Assembly (NCBI GenBank): GCA_938074535.1
Contig: CALJER010000009.1
Span: forward strand, 1 to 55,830
Direction: 5' to 3'
From: an uncultured archaeon
GTDB lineage: Archaea > Hadarchaeota > Hadarchaeia > Hadarchaeales > WYZ-LMO6
DNA length: 55,830 nucleotides
Shown here piece after piece: positions 1-6,059 of this stretch. The position numbers and the translations under genes were made by a program. A model generated the notes under the pieces. The model did not search any database, was not told the origin of the DNA, and was given only the letters and a program-made list of their open reading frames with translations. Positions within the stretch are counted from its first letter, which is position 1. Every line of letters begins with the position of its first letter.

Positions 1-1578
1 CTCCCATCCCACCCTTCCCAGAACCTCCGAGAGCCTCTCGCTGGAGGGCAGCCTCCCCTTCTCCTTCACCTCCTTCATCCAGAGGTCCAGCAGGGGCTTC
101 ACCGTGATGTCGAAGGCGCCCCCTGAGAGCCTGGAGTACTCGAGGGAGGAGAGCAGGAGGGAGAGGGTCTCCTCCGAGAGTCCCACCCAGGAAGTCCCGC
201 TGTGGTTCAGGAGGTAGATCTCCGCCCCCCTCTTCTCGGCGGACATGAGGCCCTCCACCCTCTTGATTTCCCTGTAAGCGGCTTCCACGGCCTTCTTCGC
301 CCTCGCCGTGTTCTCGTCCAACACCTGTATTTCCACGAACGTATCCATGGCCAGACCTTCCCCCACCACCCTGTCTCCCCTGACGTGGACGGTCAAGGGC
401 TGCACGGTCATGGAGCTCAGGAGGAGGGCGGTGAGGGCCGCCATTCCCAGGGTGGCTCCGGCCAGCTTCCTGCTTTCCCCTCCCAGCCTGGGAAGGAGGA
501 GGAGGGAGGAGGAGAGCAAGAGCTGGGAGAGGAGGAAGCCCCAGGCCATCCCCACCACCCCGAACCCCCTTCCCAGTACCACGATCCCTGCGAGTCCCAC
601 GGCCAGTGAGGAGGAATAGGAGAGGAGGACGGAGGAGGTTTCCTGCCTGGAGTAGAGGCGGGAGAGTTCGATCTGGGCGAGCACGGCGAGGGGGAGGGAG
701 AGGCTCATCACGCGCAGAACCTTTGCTCCCTCCCCGAAGCCAGGGAAGAAGGAGGGAAGGAACAGGGAGAGGAGGAGGGCGGAGAGGAGGAGGGGGAAGG
801 AGAGGAGGAGGGCCTTCTTTTCCGTTCTACCCACCCTCGTTCCCGCAGCCCTCTCCGGAAGGAGGTAGAAGAAGAGGATCTGGGGAAAGGAGGCGAAGAG
901 GAGGAAGAACCTGTTCCCGAACTGGTACATGCCCAGGTCCTCCCTCCCGAAGAGGGGTCCTATGACCACCTTGTCGAGGAGGTTGAAGGAAGCCGCTCCC
1001 AGGTCCACCGTCCACAGGCCCACCAGGAAGGCGGTGGGGGGAAAGGAGGGCTTTCCCCTCTTCACCCTGAGGAGGGGGAGGGAGAAGGGGAGGTAGGAGA
1101 GGGAGAGCCCCAGCAGGAGCCACCTCACCTCCCCCAGCCTGAGGTAGAGGAGGAAGGGGAGGAGGAGGGTGAGGGTCCTGGCCCCCGTCCAGAGCAGGAG
1201 GTACCCGAGGTAGGAGCGCCTGGAAAGCTCGAAGTGGAAGCTCAGGGAGAAGAGGGAGAAGGAGAGGAGGAGGAGGCCCGTCCACGGGTCCAGGAGGAGG
1301 GAGAGGAGGCCCCCCATGACGAGGGCGGGCAGGAGACCCAGAAGGAGGCAGCCCTCCAGCACCCCTTCCCCCTTCTTGGGATAGAGGACCAGGGAGGCCT
1401 TCCCCGCCCCCAGCAGGGAGATCCCCGAAAGGAGCATGGCCAGCGATACCTTCCAAGCCACCTCCCCATAGGCGAGGGGATGGAGGAGGAGGGCCAGCAG
1501 GATCCAGAAGAAGAAGCCGGAAAGAACGGCGAAGAGCTGTGCCGCTGCCACGTGGAGTACGCCACCTTTGGCCCCCAT
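1..1578 (-). CDS. apbE: Fusion protein, 3'-partial: N-terminal Wzx/MOP-superfamily flippase-like membrane domain + C-terminal ApbE FAD:protein FMN transferase
   Basis: Hand-translated; no stop codon in frame from ATG 1578 to base 1. N-term MGAKGGVLHVAAAQLFAVLSGFFFWILLA...AYGEVA and LLDKVVIGPLFGREDLGMYQFG are flippase-like. From ~370: GEGLAMDTFVEIQV...EIKRVEGLMS...EIYLLN...SGGAFDITVKPLLDLW (ApbE N-terminal motifs). Confidence 0.85.
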   Translation of the reverse strand, partial: MGAKGGVLHVAAAQLFAVLSGFFFWILLALLLHPLAYGEVAWKVSLAMLLSGISLLGAGKASLVLYPKKGEGVLEGCLLLGLLPALVMGGLLSLLLDPWTGLLLLSFSLFSLSFHFELSRRSYLGYLLLWTGARTLTLLLPFLLYLRLGEVRWLLLGLSLSYLPFSLPLLRVKRGKPSFPPTAFLVGLWTVDLGAASFNLLDKVVIGPLFGREDLGMYQFGNRFFLLFASFPQILFFYLLPERAAGTRVGRTEKKALLLSFPLLLSALLLSLFLPSFFPGFGEGAKVLRVMSLSLPLAVLAQIELSRLYSRQETSSVLLSYSSSLAVGLAGIVVLGRGFGVVGMAWGFLLSQLLLSSSLLLLPRLGGESRKLAGATLGMAALTALLLSSMTVQPLTVHVRGDRVVGEGLAMDTFVEIQVLDENTARAKKAVEAAYREIKRVEGLMSAEKRGAEIYLLNHSGTSWVGLSEETLSLLLSSLEYSRLSGGAFDITVKPLLDLWMKEVKEKGRLPSSERLSEVLGRVGWE

Positions 1579-1609: not shown

Positions 1610-1813
1610 GGCTCTGGATGGCATCTTCGGGAAGGCTGCTTCCGTCTTCTGGTGTGTGGGGTGAAGGCGGTGCGGAGCTCGGGTGGAGTACCCCACCGGG
1701 GGCGCTTCTACCTCTGCCGAGACCGGTGGCGGTCGGGCTGAACTGGTGGGGACCCTCCCCCGGCCTTCCGCGCTGTGCCGGCGGTGGGGATAAAAGGACT
1801 CCGGGGTAGGTGG

Positions 1814-2392
1814 ATGATGCTCGAGGAAGCTGGAAAGATTTTCTTGGCCCTCTTCGTGATCATGGACCCGTTCGCCAGCATCCCGATCTTCCTCCTGGTC
1901 ACCAAGGGGCTGGAGGGGAAGAAGGTGGACCGGGCGGCCGGCTACGCGGTGGGCGTGGCTGCCCTAGTCCTCTTTTTCTTCCTCTTCCTGGGGGAGCCCC
2001 TCTTCCGCCTCCTGGGAATTGAGTTCTCCTCCCTGAGGATCGGGGGAGGATTGGTGCTCGGGGTGCTGGGGATGGAGCTGGTGCTGGGCAGGAGCCTCCT
2101 GAGGAAGGAAAAGAAGGGCTCTCCCGCCCTCTCCCTGATAGGTACCCCCATGCTCACGGGTCCCGGGGTCATCGTCTCCACCATGATCTTCGTGAAGAGC
2201 TACGGGTACCTTCCCGTGGTTCTGGCCTCCTTCCCCCTCCTGGCTTCGAGCTGGGTGGTGCTCAGGCTCTCCTCCTTCTTCAGCAGGGTGCTGGGGAGGG
2301 AGGGGGTGGAGATCCTTTCGAGGGTGATGGGTCTCCTCCTGGTGACGATAGCCGTGGACCTGGTCATGGGGGGAATAGAGGCGGCCCTCTGA
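1814..2392 (+). CDS. MarC family membrane protein
   Basis: FLALFVIMDPFASIPIF, IGGGLVL, PMLTGPG, SRVMGLLLVTIAV; about 6 TM segments. Confidence 0.9.
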   Translation: MMLEEAGKIFLALFVIMDPFASIPIFLLVTKGLEGKKVDRAAGYAVGVAALVLFFFLFLGEPLFRLLGIEFSSLRIGGGLVLGVLGMELVLGRSLLRKEKKGSPALSLIGTPMLTGPGVIVSTMIFVKSYGYLPVVLASFPLLASSWVVLRLSSFFSRVLGREGVEILSRVMGLLLVTIAVDLVMGGIEAAL

Positions 2393-2548: not shown

Positions 2549-3211
2549 TCAGGGGCGGCCAAGCTTGGAGAGGTCCATCACCTCCCCTCCCTTCCTCCTC
2601 AGGAGTTCAGCGGGCAGATCCCACACCGCCCTCGCTCTCTCCACGATTACCCTGTCGCTGGAGGCCGAGACCTCGCAGGAGCTCACCTCCCTGTCCACCC
2701 CCTTCACCGCCCTGCACTTCGCCCTCACCCCGTACTTCTCCAGGATTTTGCCAGTCTCCCTGGCGAGTTCCCCGCTCCCGCTCGCCGGGCTATCGAAGAA
2801 AACCCTCACCTCCCCCGGCCCCGCCTCCCGGAGGAGAAGGGCCACCTCCTCCAGGGCCCCCCAGGTGTGCTCCCCCACCCTGTACTTCCCGAAGACCGTC
2901 CTCAGATCCCTGAGGAGACCGTCGTCGCACCTTATCACGGTATGCCCGAGCAGGAGGCTCTCGCACGTGATGATCACGTTGTACCCGTCCACCCCCAGGG
3001 TCCTTCCCCTGACCTCCCTCCAGGAGACCAGCTTCCCCCTGTTCCTCTCCGCCTCTTCCCTGGAGAAGACGCAGCGGGTGAGGAGGTGCCGCTCCCGGGA
3101 GGGAAGGCAGTAGTGGTCTGAGACCACCCTCACCGCCGTCTCCCTCGGATATCCCCTGTCCAGGAGGTACCGGAGGTCCCTGACGGCATCCTCCGTTTTC
3201 TCACTCCACAT
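2549..3211 (-). CDS. DUF434 domain protein (PIN/NYN-like fold)
   Basis: DLRYLLDRGYP N-terminus, VDGYNV, DDGLLRDL, SGEL; overlaps the leuS stop. Confidence 0.85.
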   Translation of the reverse strand: MWSEKTEDAVRDLRYLLDRGYPRETAVRVVSDHYCLPSRERHLLTRCVFSREEAERNRGKLVSWREVRGRTLGVDGYNVIITCESLLLGHTVIRCDDGLLRDLRTVFGKYRVGEHTWGALEEVALLLREAGPGEVRVFFDSPASGSGELARETGKILEKYGVRAKCRAVKGVDREVSSCEVSASSDRVIVERARAVWDLPAELLRRKGGEVMDLSKLGRP

Positions 3212-6059
3212 AGATGGCGGGCCTGAGGGGGAGGGCCCCCTTGCCCCTCCCCTTCGGGTCGTAGATCCCTGAATCGTCCTCCCGGAAGACCCTCACCTCT
3301 GCCCCCAGCTGCTTCTCCAGGTAGGAGGAATTTTCTCTCAGGATCGAGTACTCGTCCACTCCTTCGGAGAGGAGGACCAGCCTCTCTTCGGACAGGTCCC
3401 TGGCCCCCTCCAGCACCTTCGCCAGGAAAGGCGCCAGCTCGGTTTTGGGCTTTCCCAGCGTCCCCTCCAGGTGCCTGAGGAGCTCACCCCTGTCCTTCCT
3501 GCCCAGCGAGAGCAGCTTCAGGATCTCCCTGTGGGCCTCCCTCTTCCAGGCGGAGGGGGTGTAGAGGCAGACGAGCCTGGGCTTCACCTTCACCACCTTC
3601 GCGATTTTTCCCACATCCTCCAGCACGGAGGAGAGGAACTCCTCCGTGAGCTCGGCCTGGGGATCCTTCAGCCCCTCCTCCACCTCGGGCCAGGGGGCCA
3701 GGGAGACGAAGCCCTCCCCACCCATCCTGCTCCAGAGCTCCTCGCACAGGTGCGGGATGAAGGGGGCGAGCAGACGGACCCAGACATGGAGCACCTTCTT
3801 CACCACCTCCCCCCTCACCTCCTCCCCCCTCCAGGAAAGGTACTTCCTCACGTCCTGCTGGAGGAAGAAGAAGGAGTGCTGCAGGGCCCTCCTCGTCTCG
3901 AACCTCTCCATGGCCTGCGTGGCCTCTTCCACCCTCCTCTGGAGCCTGCTCAGGAGCCATCTCTCCGGAAGGCCGGGGGGGAGCCCCGAGGGGGGAAGGG
4001 AGAGGAGCTCCTCGCACAGGGAGTAGAACCTCTCCAGCGCCCTCACCATTCCCTCCGCCTCGACCTTCCTCCAGTTGAAGTCCTGCCAGGGCTCGGAGGA
4101 GGACATGAGGTAAAGTCTCACGGCATCGGCCCCGTACTCCTGCAAGGCTTTGTTCACCTCCACCAGGTTCCCCTTTGAGGAGGACATCTTCTGGCCCTCC
4201 AGAACCGCTATCCCGAAGCAGACGATTCCCCTGGGGAGGCGGTGGGGGAAGAGGAGCGCGTGGTGGAAGACGAAGAAGGTGAGGTGGTTGGGGATGAGTT
4301 CGCTGGCCGACATGCGGTAGTCCAGGGGGTACCAGTACTCGAACTCCTCCCTCAGGCGCCGCAGCGTGGGAAGGGGGATCCCCGAGGAGCGGGAGAGGGC
4401 TTCCGGATCTCCCCTGCCGTAGAAGACGAAGTCGAAGACCTCGTCCCCTATCTTCTCGGGATCCAGCTGCTTGAGGAGGTGTGAGAGGGGATAGTAGGCC
4501 ATGTAGACGGTGGAGTCGCTCAGCGATTCTATGATCCAGCTGGGGTCCCAGGGGGCCTTCGTGCCCATCCCCACCTTCCTGGTGCAGGGCCATTCACGGA
4601 GCCAGCTGATGGTGTGCTCGTACTGGGCCCTGGTCTCCGGCGGGATGAGCTCCATCCTCCCCAGGACTTCCCTGGTTTTTTCCTTCCAGCCCTCGTCCGC
4701 GTAGTTCAGGAACCACTGGTCCTCCACCACCTTTATCACCACGGGCGACCCGCACCTGCACCTCACGGGCTTGAGGGAGAACTCGTACATGAGGGCCGCC
4801 TCGCCCCTGGAGAGGAGGTCCTGCTTCACCAGGTTCTTGGCCTCGGAAACGGCCCTGCCGCCGTAGAAGGGTATCCACTCCCTCATCCTCCCCTTCGCGA
4901 ACTCCGCCCTGTAGACCCTGGAGGTGGCCTCCTCCAGTCTGGGGTCGAGCTGCCCTTTTATCCCCAGCCTCTGTACCTCGTCGGCCGCGGGGAACTCCCC
5001 GTATCCCTCCACCTCGATCAGGGAGAGCGGCCGGAGCCTCTCCTCCTCCACTCCGAGTCGCCTCAGCTCTTCAGGTCTCTTCTTGAGCTCCTCCAGCGCC
5101 ACGAGGTCGTAGGGGGCGTGGGAGGGGACGGAGCCCACCACCCCGGTGGCGTTGTCTGGATCCACGAAGTCGGCGGGAAGGATGGGCACCTTCTTCTTCG
5201 TGAGGGGGACCTCCACCTCCGAGCCGAACCTCACCTGGAAGGGTCTGGCCTCCCCCACCCTGTAGCCCTGCTCCGCCAGCTTGGGCACGGCCTGCTCGCT
5301 CACCACCCATCTCTCCCCGTCCACCTCCACCTCCACATAGTTGGCCTTGGGGTTGAGCCAGAGGTTGGTGACACCGAAGACGGTCTCGGGCCTGAGCGTG
5401 GCGGCGGGCAGGACCTTCCCGCCCGCCCGGTACTTCAGAAGGGTGAACTCCAGCACCTCTGCCTCCTCCCCCTCCAGCAGGTCGTGGTCCGTGACGGGGT
5501 TGCCGTCCCTCGGGCACCACCTCACCGGATGCTTCCCCCTCACGATGAGCCCGGCCTCCATGAGTTTGTGGTACTGCCAGGTCACGAACTTGCTGTAGGG
5601 CGGATCCACGGTGGTGAAATCCCTCCTCCAGTCTATGGAGAGGCCCAGCCACTTCATCCCCTTCTTGTAGCTGAGGTCGCTGATTTCGGCGAAGTAGGTC
5701 CCGAAGTACTTGGGGTCCTCCATCTTGGGCAGGAGGTCCTTGGGGACGCCGTACCGTCCGAGGAGGAGCTCCACGTAAGCCTGCTCCCTCCTGGCCACCC
5801 TCCTGGAGGCTCCCACGATGGGAGTTCCCGTGAAGTGGAAGGCCATGGGGAAGAGGACGTTGTAGCCCCTCATGCGCTTGTACCTGGCTATCACGTCCGG
5901 GATGGTGTAGGTGCGGGCGTGGCCTATGTGCATGGGGCCGGAAACGTACGGATAGGCCACGGTGAGGTAGAACTTGGGTCTCCCGTCGGGCTCCGCCTGA
6001 AAGATCCCCGCCCTCTCCCACTTCTCCTGCCACTTCCTCTCCAGCTCCTTGAAGTCCAT
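3201..6059 (-). CDS. leuS: Leucine--tRNA ligase, archaeal type
   Basis: AYPYVSGPMHIGH (HIGH), ATLRPET, editing-domain GVVGSVPSHAPYD, KMSSSKGN; 952 aa. Confidence 0.97.
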   Translation of the reverse strand: MDFKELERKWQEKWERAGIFQAEPDGRPKFYLTVAYPYVSGPMHIGHARTYTIPDVIARYKRMRGYNVLFPMAFHFTGTPIVGASRRVARREQAYVELLLGRYGVPKDLLPKMEDPKYFGTYFAEISDLSYKKGMKWLGLSIDWRRDFTTVDPPYSKFVTWQYHKLMEAGLIVRGKHPVRWCPRDGNPVTDHDLLEGEEAEVLEFTLLKYRAGGKVLPAATLRPETVFGVTNLWLNPKANYVEVEVDGERWVVSEQAVPKLAEQGYRVGEARPFQVRFGSEVEVPLTKKKVPILPADFVDPDNATGVVGSVPSHAPYDLVALEELKKRPEELRRLGVEEERLRPLSLIEVEGYGEFPAADEVQRLGIKGQLDPRLEEATSRVYRAEFAKGRMREWIPFYGGRAVSEAKNLVKQDLLSRGEAALMYEFSLKPVRCRCGSPVVIKVVEDQWFLNYADEGWKEKTREVLGRMELIPPETRAQYEHTISWLREWPCTRKVGMGTKAPWDPSWIIESLSDSTVYMAYYPLSHLLKQLDPEKIGDEVFDFVFYGRGDPEALSRSSGIPLPTLRRLREEFEYWYPLDYRMSASELIPNHLTFFVFHHALLFPHRLPRGIVCFGIAVLEGQKMSSSKGNLVEVNKALQEYGADAVRLYLMSSSEPWQDFNWRKVEAEGMVRALERFYSLCEELLSLPPSGLPPGLPERWLLSRLQRRVEEATQAMERFETRRALQHSFFFLQQDVRKYLSWRGEEVRGEVVKKVLHVWVRLLAPFIPHLCEELWSRMGGEGFVSLAPWPEVEEGLKDPQAELTEEFLSSVLEDVGKIAKVVKVKPRLVCLYTPSAWKREAHREILKLLSLGRKDRGELLRHLEGTLGKPKTELAPFLAKVLEGARDLSEERLVLLSEGVDEYSILRENSSYLEKQLGAEVRVFREDDSGIYDPKGRGKGALPLRPAIYVE

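Follow-up and report, generated by a model that had tools for sequence, protein, structure and literature searches.

A stretch of DNA from an uncultured archaeon (Candidatus Hadarchaeales; genome G000, 1.2 Mb, 53 contigs, 93.6% complete) was analysed over the first 55,830 bases of contig C9 (G000:C9:1-55830), referred to here as the window. At its left end lies a gene that joins a flippase-like membrane domain in frame to the flavin transferase ApbE. This fusion is real and conserved, far beyond chance, and it accompanies the genes of the ion pump Rnf. Its function is offered tentatively, at somewhat less than even confidence: a re-purposed flippase may export flavin adenine dinucleotide (FAD) to its own tethered ApbE, for the flavinylation of RnfG and RnfD. 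That a branch of Wzx-type glycan flippases turned FAD exporter and was welded to ApbE is likewise possible, and is put forward with slightly greater reserve.

The minus-strand frame is open for 526 codons, from an ATG at 1576-1578 to base 1, and a stop is located five codons upstream of this ATG. Because base 1 is the end of contig C9, the gene is incomplete in the window; the frame runs off the contig, and a listing of open reading frames (ORFs) includes it only when open ends are allowed. An earlier note, made from the letters of this DNA, had described a minus-strand gene with Wzx/MOP-like and ApbE parts in one frame, and all of the motifs it quoted are present (FFFWILLA at residue 22, DKVVIG at 202, GREDLGMYQ at 211, AMDTFVEI at 410 and GAFDITV at 487). 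The gene and its parts are as follows.

1-1578, minus strand: partial coding sequence of the Wzx-like/ApbE fusion, 526 codons, 3' end cut by the end of C9 (from the ORF and the full-length ORFs in 12 relatives).
484-1578, minus strand: domain of the MOP superfamily with 12 transmembrane (TM) helices, Wzx/Polysacc_synt branch, residues 1-365, N-terminus predicted cytoplasmic (from hydropathy, AlphaFold2 (AF2), Foldseek and Pfam matches in relatives).
403-483, minus strand: short K/R-containing cytoplasmic turn and 13th TM helix, residues 366-392, predicted to carry the chain outside (from hydropathy and models).
1-402, minus strand: first 134 residues of the ApbE domain, residues 393-526, predicted extracytoplasmic, with the remainder on contig C7 (from Pfam PF02424).
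970-975, minus strand: Asp202-Lys203 in TM7, a signature common to fused and standalone members (from row comparison).
910-912, minus strand: Arg223 in TM8, a switch specific to the fused clade (from row comparison).
1453-1482, minus strand: His33 to Trp42 (HPLAYGEVAW), the outer TM1-TM2 hairpin, with the fused-specific His33, Ala36 and Trp42 beside the shared Tyr37-Gly38 (from row comparison).

The rest of the ApbE domain had been expected beyond the contig edge, and it was recovered on contig C7 after a gap of ~34 codons. The missing C-terminus (G000:C7:2-448, plus strand, 148 residues) covers positions 143-256 of the ApbE profile with an E-value of 1.7e-38 and 132.6 bits, and its orientation matches the continuation of the C9 gene. 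Alignment to the closest relative puts ~34 residues in the unassembled gap between C9 and C7, and the full-length fusion protein is expected to comprise about 708 residues. As regards the assembly, C9 reverse-complemented should continue into the start of C7 (G000:C7:1-448, L009/L031), the gap should encode the GGIAKGYA region, and the join would place the window beside the rnf operon.

The same fusion is found in related genomes. The 526-residue query matched 15 of 40 of them, and 12 of these 15 carry it as one uninterrupted ORF of 685-729 residues with a conserved Met start. These 12 full-length products are 41-86% identical to the protein of the closest relative, which served as alignment reference. 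Among the other matches, the copy in G004 is cut by a contig end and G011 retains only a 42-residue fragment. In G034 (G034:C51:4155-5741, L020) the gene, which lies at a contig end, shows a single in-frame TGA near its 5' part; sequencing error, pseudogene formation and recoding are possible reasons. A large protein database holds about 65 clusters with the same length and architecture by a first search and about 85 by a second; the proteins are called only "FAD:protein FMN transferase" or "thiamine biosynthesis lipoprotein" there, and those with organism names are labelled Candidatus Hadarchaeales or Hadarchaeota. An artefact of assembly or gene calling, by which two genes were wrongly joined, is extremely improbable. 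It might be argued from the break of the gene by a contig end in this assembly and from the in-frame TGA of G034, but the junction (nucleotides about 400-480) is in frame and well inside contig C9, with no stop and no frameshift, and the ORF runs through without interruption in 12 relatives, each assembled independently, and in about 85 database clusters drawn from several sources. The earlier note had named a break at this junction as one of the observations that would speak against its proposal. A frameshift was considered and rejected, as the junction is in frame and continuous in the relatives.

The membrane domain has a flippase-like layout. Alignment-averaged hydropathy shows 12 paired TM helices whose K/R-rich loops all lie on one side, followed by a short turn with K/R residues and, at residues about 367-389, a 13th helix. 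By the positive-inside rule, the protein is predicted to have its N-terminus inside, 13 TM helices and the ApbE domain outside, the side on which the transferase had been expected. WzxE is described as a 12-TM protein with both termini cytoplasmic (PMC11706664), and since the 12-TM unit has both ends in the cytoplasm there, TM13 would take the chain outside. AF2 models reached a predicted local distance difference test score (pLDDT) of 86.5 and a predicted TM-score (pTM) of 0.78 for the full-length closest relative, and a pLDDT of 93.3 and a pTM of 0.91 for residues 1-392 of the window protein itself. The modelled fold is unambiguously that of the MOP superfamily, with two six-helix lobes around a central cavity. 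The top Foldseek match is inward-facing WzxE (9g9p; E 1.8e-8, TM-score 0.77, root-mean-square deviation 3.7 A, probability 1.00), with MurJ and MATE ranking below. In VIA-align, 14 MOP chains scored Z 17.3-24.6 over about 360 residues and the next match scored 7.2; the top scores were 24.6 for MurJ, 23.0 for MATE and 21.8 for WzxE. A profile of the N-terminal domain (N domain) gave 0 matches to PDB sequences at E up to 10, and the fold comparison is thus the sole link to solved structures.

Sequence profiles define the family more closely. Polysacc_synt_3 reaches 17.2 bits in the window protein, below its cut-off of 23, and among 13 family members at E up to 0.1, Polysacc_synt_3 (PF13440) is matched by six and Polysacc_synt (PF01943) by five (best E 1.8e-7). 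Precomputed assignments to PF01943 or PF13440 are also attached to many database members of the fused family. MatE (PF01554) gave no match to the 526-residue protein at E up to 1 and was not among the families reported for the 13 members. Assignment to the MATE family was rejected, given the missing MatE match and the Polysacc_synt matches in relatives. The analogy that had been drawn with the MATE exporters Bfe of Shewanella and YeeO of E. coli therefore holds at the level of the superfamily fold (MATE chains Z 17-23) and fails at the level of the family, where the domain falls with the Polysacc_synt/Wzx branch; Bfe and YeeO are also described as encoded by separate genes, neither fused to nor linked with apbE. 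With Wzx flippases (WzxE 9g9p/9g95) the domain shares the 12 TM helices, the two six-helix lobes, the best Foldseek match, weak Pfam matches, standalone sisters in glycan clusters and a conserved signature on the WzxE cavity helices TM1, 2, 7 and 8. It differs from them in being more compact (about 365 residues versus about 410-420), in its rnf-adjacent fused form, in fixed cavity-helix substitutions and in being joined to an enzyme whose cofactor is a soluble nucleotide.

The C-terminal domain is a full member of the ApbE/Ftp/FmnB family (PF02424; 1vrm, 6nxi, 4ifu, 7esa). The window fragment matches Pfam ApbE over residues 411-526 with E 4e-22 and 79.4 bits (cut-off 25.6), covering profile positions 1-109 of 266, and the closest full-length relative matches with 282.8 bits over positions 1-258 of 266. 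ApbE is present in 13 of 13 aligned family proteins (best E 1e-92). The NCBIfam ApbE equivalog scores below threshold (28.9 bits versus 498) because the protein is truncated and fused. Since the window copy is truncated, the fold was checked on a relative of 86% identity, whose model matches 1vrm with E 3.5e-19 and TM-score 0.87 and also matches FmnB, Ftp and Vibrio cholerae (Vc) ApbE (TM-score 0.82-0.87 across the family). By sequence, the domain aligns end to end with Thermotoga maritima ApbE (1vrm) at E 6.4e-49, including the motifs TSGDY, HHILDP and DADALST. These motifs, as TSGDY, HH(I/L)xDP and DADALST, are nearly invariant in the family alignment and are aligned in E. coli Ftp, and the C7 fragment of this genome carries all three, so by its motifs the transferase does not lack the catalytic residues, a lack that would have spoken against the proposal. 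The catalytic triad of Vc ApbE consists of Ser241, His257 and Asp285 (PMC12052999), and by motif equivalence, with no residue-by-residue alignment to 6nxi, we take the three motifs to correspond to this Ser-His-Asp triad. The domain resembles known members in its motifs, its predicted extracytoplasmic location and its position beside Rnf substrates; it differs from them in that a 13th helix tethers it to a domain with 12 TM helices and a transporter fold, where known ApbE proteins are described as lipoproteins, single-anchor proteins or cytosolic proteins (PMC12052999).

The fusion is tied to Rnf. Contig C7 carries a complete rnfCDGEAB operon convergent with the 3' end of the fusion gene, and rnf genes occur in the fusion locus of 12 of 12 relatives. 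Eight of the 12 have rnfCDGEAB immediately convergent, one has an rnfB fragment at a contig end, and in the remaining three, which form one family, an rnfGEAB cluster is either adjacent or at a distance of 6 kb. In this family (G009, G012, G015; L036-L038) the rnf operon is split: in G012 and G015, RnfD is encoded 8-10 kb from rnfGEAB on one contig, and G009 has it on a different contig. The fused gene is not in a glycan cluster in any of the 12 relatives, being rnf-adjacent in all of them, in loci whose other neighbours fall outside the Pfam scan. Strong ApbE matches were obtained in 15 of 41 Hadarchaeales genomes and each is the fused gene; G016 and G039 gave partial-profile matches of about 24 bits. 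No standalone ApbE was found among the Hadarchaeales genomes searched, where homologues kept as separate, unlinked genes had been named as a possible objection. RnfD occurs in 16 of the 41 genomes, namely the 15 with a fused ApbE and G011, which has the fusion fragment.

Candidate acceptor proteins, which the earlier note had proposed to look for, are encoded next door. RnfG is the only FMN_bind protein of the genome and contains E-A-V-T-G-A-T, and RnfD (L031, G000:C7, 2934-3962) contains E-G-V-S-T-A-T. The published flavinylation motif is D-x-x-[S/T]-G-A-[S/T], and replacement of its Asp is reported to have had minor effects only (PMC12052999). Among 18 loci searched, RnfG has [D/E]-x-x-[S/T]-G-A-T in 14, and RnfD has [D/E]-G-[VI]-[ST]-[TS]-A-T, continuing with P-L, in nine, all from Hadarchaeales (including L031-L034, L040-L042 and L050). 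The one bacterial RnfD seen (L062, Synergistaceae) has the canonical D-G-I-T-G-A-T. From these candidate sites, the substrates would be the neighbouring RnfG and, probably, RnfD.

The origin of the membrane domain can be traced among standalone proteins. The N-domain profile was compared with 1.84 billion representative proteins and yielded 2,114 matches with a limit of E 1e-3 and 252 with a limit of E 1e-30. A few fusions head the list and are followed by many standalone proteins, about 375-395 residues long, whose matches span profile positions of about 5-368, that is, the 12 TM helices without TM13. They match down to E 1e-114, and several pass the Polysacc_synt cut-off (for example P0134, 45.5 bits). 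A homology search with P0134 gave 11 matches, unnamed save two labelled "O-antigen/teichoic acid export membrane protein". In a FastTree tree of 76 fused rows, some of them duplicates, and 133 standalone rows, with the genome's canonical flippase as single distant outgroup, all 76 fused rows fall into a single clade (support 1.0) that with that root lies 12 nodes deep in the standalone family, sister to the standalone protein P0128. The tree thus indicates that the fusion arose once, from a flippase. Three long forms of 629-922 residues (P0154, P0177, P0198) have C-terminal parts without a Pfam match.

Residues were compared between the 76 fused rows and 132 standalone rows, P0128 being left out. 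The same residue is kept at 80% or more in both groups at 25 positions, which are concentrated on TM1, 2, 7 and 8 and include Phe24, Trp25 and Ala29 in TM1, Tyr37 and Gly38 in TM2, Asp202 and Lys203 in TM7, and Leu215, Tyr218, Pro232, Tyr238 and Leu240 in TM8. WzxE's central cavity is described as being formed mostly by TM1-2 and TM7-8 (PMC11706664). Asp202 and Lys203 are each kept in 99% of fused rows and in 98% and 91% of standalone rows, respectively; Tyr218 and Gly38 reach 100% and Trp25 99% in the fused clade. Conservation of the shared positions in the fused clade equals or exceeds that in the standalone proteins, which argues against decay to a passive anchor. A further 14 positions are fixed in the fused clade and rare in standalone proteins. 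Arg223 in TM8 is Arg in 76 of 76 fused rows and Gln in 96% of standalone rows, with Arg in 0%; the two closest standalone proteins have Gln at this position and two truncated fused-type fragments have Arg. His33 is found in 97% of fused rows versus 1% of standalone rows, Trp42 is fused-specific where 82% of standalone rows have Tyr, and Gln14, Trp130, Gln352 and Ala36 are further switches of the fused clade. By helix and topology only, His33, Ala36, Trp42, Asp202-Lys203, Tyr218 and Arg223 would fall in the outer half of these cavity helices, on the side of the tethered ApbE.

These residues also bear on an explanation without transport. The 12-TM domain could be a membrane scaffold or assembly factor that holds ApbE, perhaps docked to nascent RnfD, RnfG or RnfE, with FAD arriving by another route. 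We regard this as unlikely, if the foremost of the alternatives. A plain lipid or helix anchor is described as the norm for ApbE enzymes (PMC12052999), the gene goes with rnf throughout, and the fused-specific residues lie close to the outer face, to which ApbE or Rnf subunits could bind. Against a scaffold, TM13 alone would be enough as an anchor, no alternative FAD exporter was found in the genome, and the cavity-helix signature is as conserved as in working flippases or more, which is not expected of a passive scaffold.

The fusion is also found in metagenome-assembled genomes labelled as bacterial. A pattern scan for the N domain, with one genome per species, gave 20 loci: 11 labelled Hadarchaeota or Hadesarchaea (at least nine being genomes already examined), six Dehalococcoidia, two Actinomycetota (including Candidatus Hakubella) and one Synergistaceae. 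In 19 of the 20, ApbE continues the same frame, and the contig of the remaining one ends first. The bacterial fused loci are L051, L052, L055-L060 and L062, and database rows are also labelled Acetothermia and Atribacteraceae. In a 21-row IQ-TREE tree, whose midpoint root does not prove direction, the bacterial rows form two clades nested among archaeal rows: the two Actinomycetota rows (100/100), and Dehalococcoidia with Synergistaceae (100/100), sister to a Hadarchaeotal row (100/100). This suggests transfer between the domains of life at least twice, with the gene still fused. Mis-binning of short contigs may play a part, for example in the Hakubella contig of 7.6 kb, on which the rnf genes appear Hadarchaeal. 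In four of five bacterial genomes the fused gene is the sole ApbE. On the Synergistaceae contig the fusion lies directly upstream of rnfCDGEA, the products of which are 35-47% identical to those of this genome, and the fusion itself is 39-50% identical. Since the fusion stands there beside a much more divergent rnf, the gene would have travelled independently of rnf and settled beside another one. Two of the Dehalococcoidia loci have rnfC/D at a distance of about 4 kb, and in three no rnf is seen within the stretch examined. Archaea and bacteria differ in lipid carriers and glycans. The fused form and its cavity residues were retained across both, which favours a substrate common to the two, such as FAD.

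How ApbE obtains its FAD is described in a paper on Vc ApbE as an open issue, with the MATE proteins Bfe and YeeO named as candidates and as a MOP precedent for flavin export (PMC5655446). In Listeria, the ECF (energy-coupling factor) transporter EetB-FmnA exports FAD for the ApbE protein FmnB (PMC9973259). The Listeria system EetB-FmnA-EcfA/A' resembles the proposed one in pairing a dedicated FAD exporter with a co-encoded extracytosolic flavin transferase; it differs in being of an unrelated class, ATP-driven and multi-subunit, where the fold here is MOP and not ECF. The archaeal genome has a riboflavin cluster (G000:C5:30685-32597) with lumazine synthase, a second DMRL-type gene, DHBP synthase and the archaeal CTP-dependent riboflavin kinase. 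The presence of this cluster with the kinase indicates that flavins are made inside the cell. The DHBP synthase in the cluster lies in an open frame of 447 residues and is possibly fused.

The coupling of FAD export to flavinylation, as proposed in the earlier note, is the best-supported reading of the fusion, and it is one that we infer. Flavins are made in the cytoplasm, and ApbE needs FAD outside. The membrane domain would carry FAD, or a close flavin nucleotide, across the membrane and release it at the outer vestibule beside the tethered ApbE, which would transfer the flavin mononucleotide (FMN) moiety to Thr of RnfG and RnfD with release of AMP. The diphosphate bridge of FAD resembles the phosphate- or diphosphate-sugar head group held by cationic residues in Wzx-type cavities, and the fixed change of Gln to Arg223 fits a re-targeting of this kind. 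Export is favoured because the fusion is the only ApbE, is tied to rnf, has cavity helices that are both constrained and altered, and kept its form after transfer; it is supported further by the production of flavins inside the cell together with the finding of no FAD exporter of a known type.

Another small molecule might be carried instead. It could be riboflavin or FMN for the non-covalent flavin of Rnf, the domain could serve to remove AMP or act on the Mg2+/Na+ environment, or it could be an importer that works inward for flavin salvage. MOP transporters are diverse, no data here fix the substrate, and ApbE/Ftp of Treponema is reported to act in flavin salvage (PMC4767422). Import would be unneeded, given that de novo riboflavin synthesis is present, and FAD is the defined substrate of ApbE (PMC12052999) and hence the simplest candidate; substrates of this kind are accordingly judged improbable, below a scaffold.

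Several points weigh against FAD export. The lack of ALTERNATIVES, with neither EetB (PF07456) nor an ECF S-component (PF12822) matched at E up to 0.01, was observed in a genome that is 93.6% complete and so falls short of proof. The profile matches place the membrane domain in the Wzx/Polysacc_synt branch and not in MATE. The fused-specific residues of the outer half could form a docking surface for ApbE. Hadarchaeal RnfD has Ser or Thr at the Gly position of the flavinylation motif. Among the best 120 long ApbE proteins, none showed an independent fusion of ApbE to a transporter of another family, which is weak evidence, as candidates were picked by the words they share with this ApbE. Finally, the genomic context of the standalone proteins speaks for glycans. 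It was sampled in 80 metagenome loci (493 kb, median GC 29%), and a hidden Markov model of ApbE made from the family alignment matched 0 of the 80. Long flanks were available for 25 of the 80 loci, of which 22 were kept after three near-duplicates were dropped, and three ORFs on each side (117 ORFs) were compared with Pfam. Glycosyltransferases (GT2, GT4), PMT_2/GT-C enzymes, or sugar-nucleotide epimerases, dehydratases or aminotransferases were present in 17 of the 22, and by this context the nearest relatives of the fusion are glycan flippases. The ancestral substrate is accordingly a lipid-linked glycan, and for this branch a soluble nucleotide would be a substrate of a new class.

As to the sampled loci themselves, the compact standalone family of about 380 residues (L064-L143) is found mostly on low-GC contigs, and its members often lie directly beside GT-C proteins of the PMT_2/DUF2079 type (about 515-535 residues) and a GT2. 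Glycan genes are missing from five loci (L064, L070, L084, L127, L138), and in L064 and L070 the gene adjoins archaeal ribosomal protein genes instead.

The membrane domain could accordingly still be a flippase for lipid-linked glycans, with the fusion serving co-regulation or co-localisation of envelope maturation and not flavin supply. The nesting of the fused clade in a family with 17 of 22 standalone loci in glycan clusters agrees with this, as do the matches of some members to Polysacc_synt or Polysacc_synt_3 and the best Foldseek match, WzxE. Yet the fused gene has no glycosyltransferase context and is rnf-adjacent in 12 of 12 relatives, its presence tracks Rnf across 41 genomes, its cavity helices carry fixed substitutions including Gln to Arg223, and its form was kept after transfer from archaea to bacteria despite their different lipid carriers and glycans. 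The genome also has a separate canonical flippase with a Polysacc_synt score of 112-115 bits. A glycan flippase, which had been named from the outset as the alternative, thus describes the ancestry well and the fused clade poorly, since the latter goes with rnf and not with glycan genes; as a present function we think it doubtful, and the least likely of the three alternatives to FAD export. The canonical flippase (G000:C13:3070-3912, L029:1468-2970) has 501 residues and also matches MurJ with 32 bits and MatE with 23-25 bits; the sole MatE match in the genome, at cut-off level with 24.9 bits, is on this protein, and it is the only other gene of the MOP superfamily detected in the genome.

The architecture had been thought to be undescribed, and literature searches agree with this, while the proteins themselves are already in public databases under a generic name. 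Searches that paired ApbE with flippase and fusion, or with Wzx, returned nothing on this protein as judged by titles and abstracts. The word "flippase" does not occur in the main text of a 2025 review of ApbE (PMC12052999) or in that of a 2021 survey of 31,910 genomes, and "Polysacc" does not occur in the main text of the survey, supplements being outside this count. Other ApbE fusions are known, such as the FMN_bind-ApbE proteins of Brocadiales/Planctomycetota and the fumarate reductase of trypanosomatids, which is described as carrying an ApbE domain (PMC12052999). They likewise join ApbE to a functional partner, but theirs are fusions of the enzyme with its protein substrate, whereas the fusion here is with a transporter-fold domain that would supply the small-molecule substrate if FAD is exported. 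Many Brocadiales/Planctomycetota proteins of 520-610 residues with FMN_bind and ApbE are found among P0076-P0120 and P0299-P0309, and further proteins in these sets have CBM-like (PF16011 and PF06452) or beta-helix domains ahead of ApbE.

The other genes at this end of the window have no evident tie to flavins or glycans. A MarC-family membrane protein (1775-2389, plus strand) is divergent from the fusion gene, and upstream of the latter lie a DUF434 and DUF5616 protein (2552-3211, minus strand) and an ORF of 952 residues (3201-6059, minus strand) whose translation reads like leucyl-tRNA synthetase.

Only in Listeria is it known how FAD passes the membrane, through an ECF exporter; MATE proteins are suspected of the same role. 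The natural joining of ApbE with a transporter fold is a Rosetta-stone hint: it points to one definite candidate, and a single gene is enough to make the question testable. Should the domain prove to be a scaffold, or a flippase as before, what has been found is a known enzyme with an unusual anchor. If it does export FAD, it would be the first flavin-export system proposed for archaea and a new kind of flavin exporter, with a new substrate class for the Wzx/PST branch and a flippase cavity that evolved toward a soluble dinucleotide. It would further be a one-gene cassette that both supplies and installs the covalent FMN of Rnf and is portable between archaea and at least three bacterial phyla, and it would bear on how deep-subsurface archaea assemble their main ion pump.

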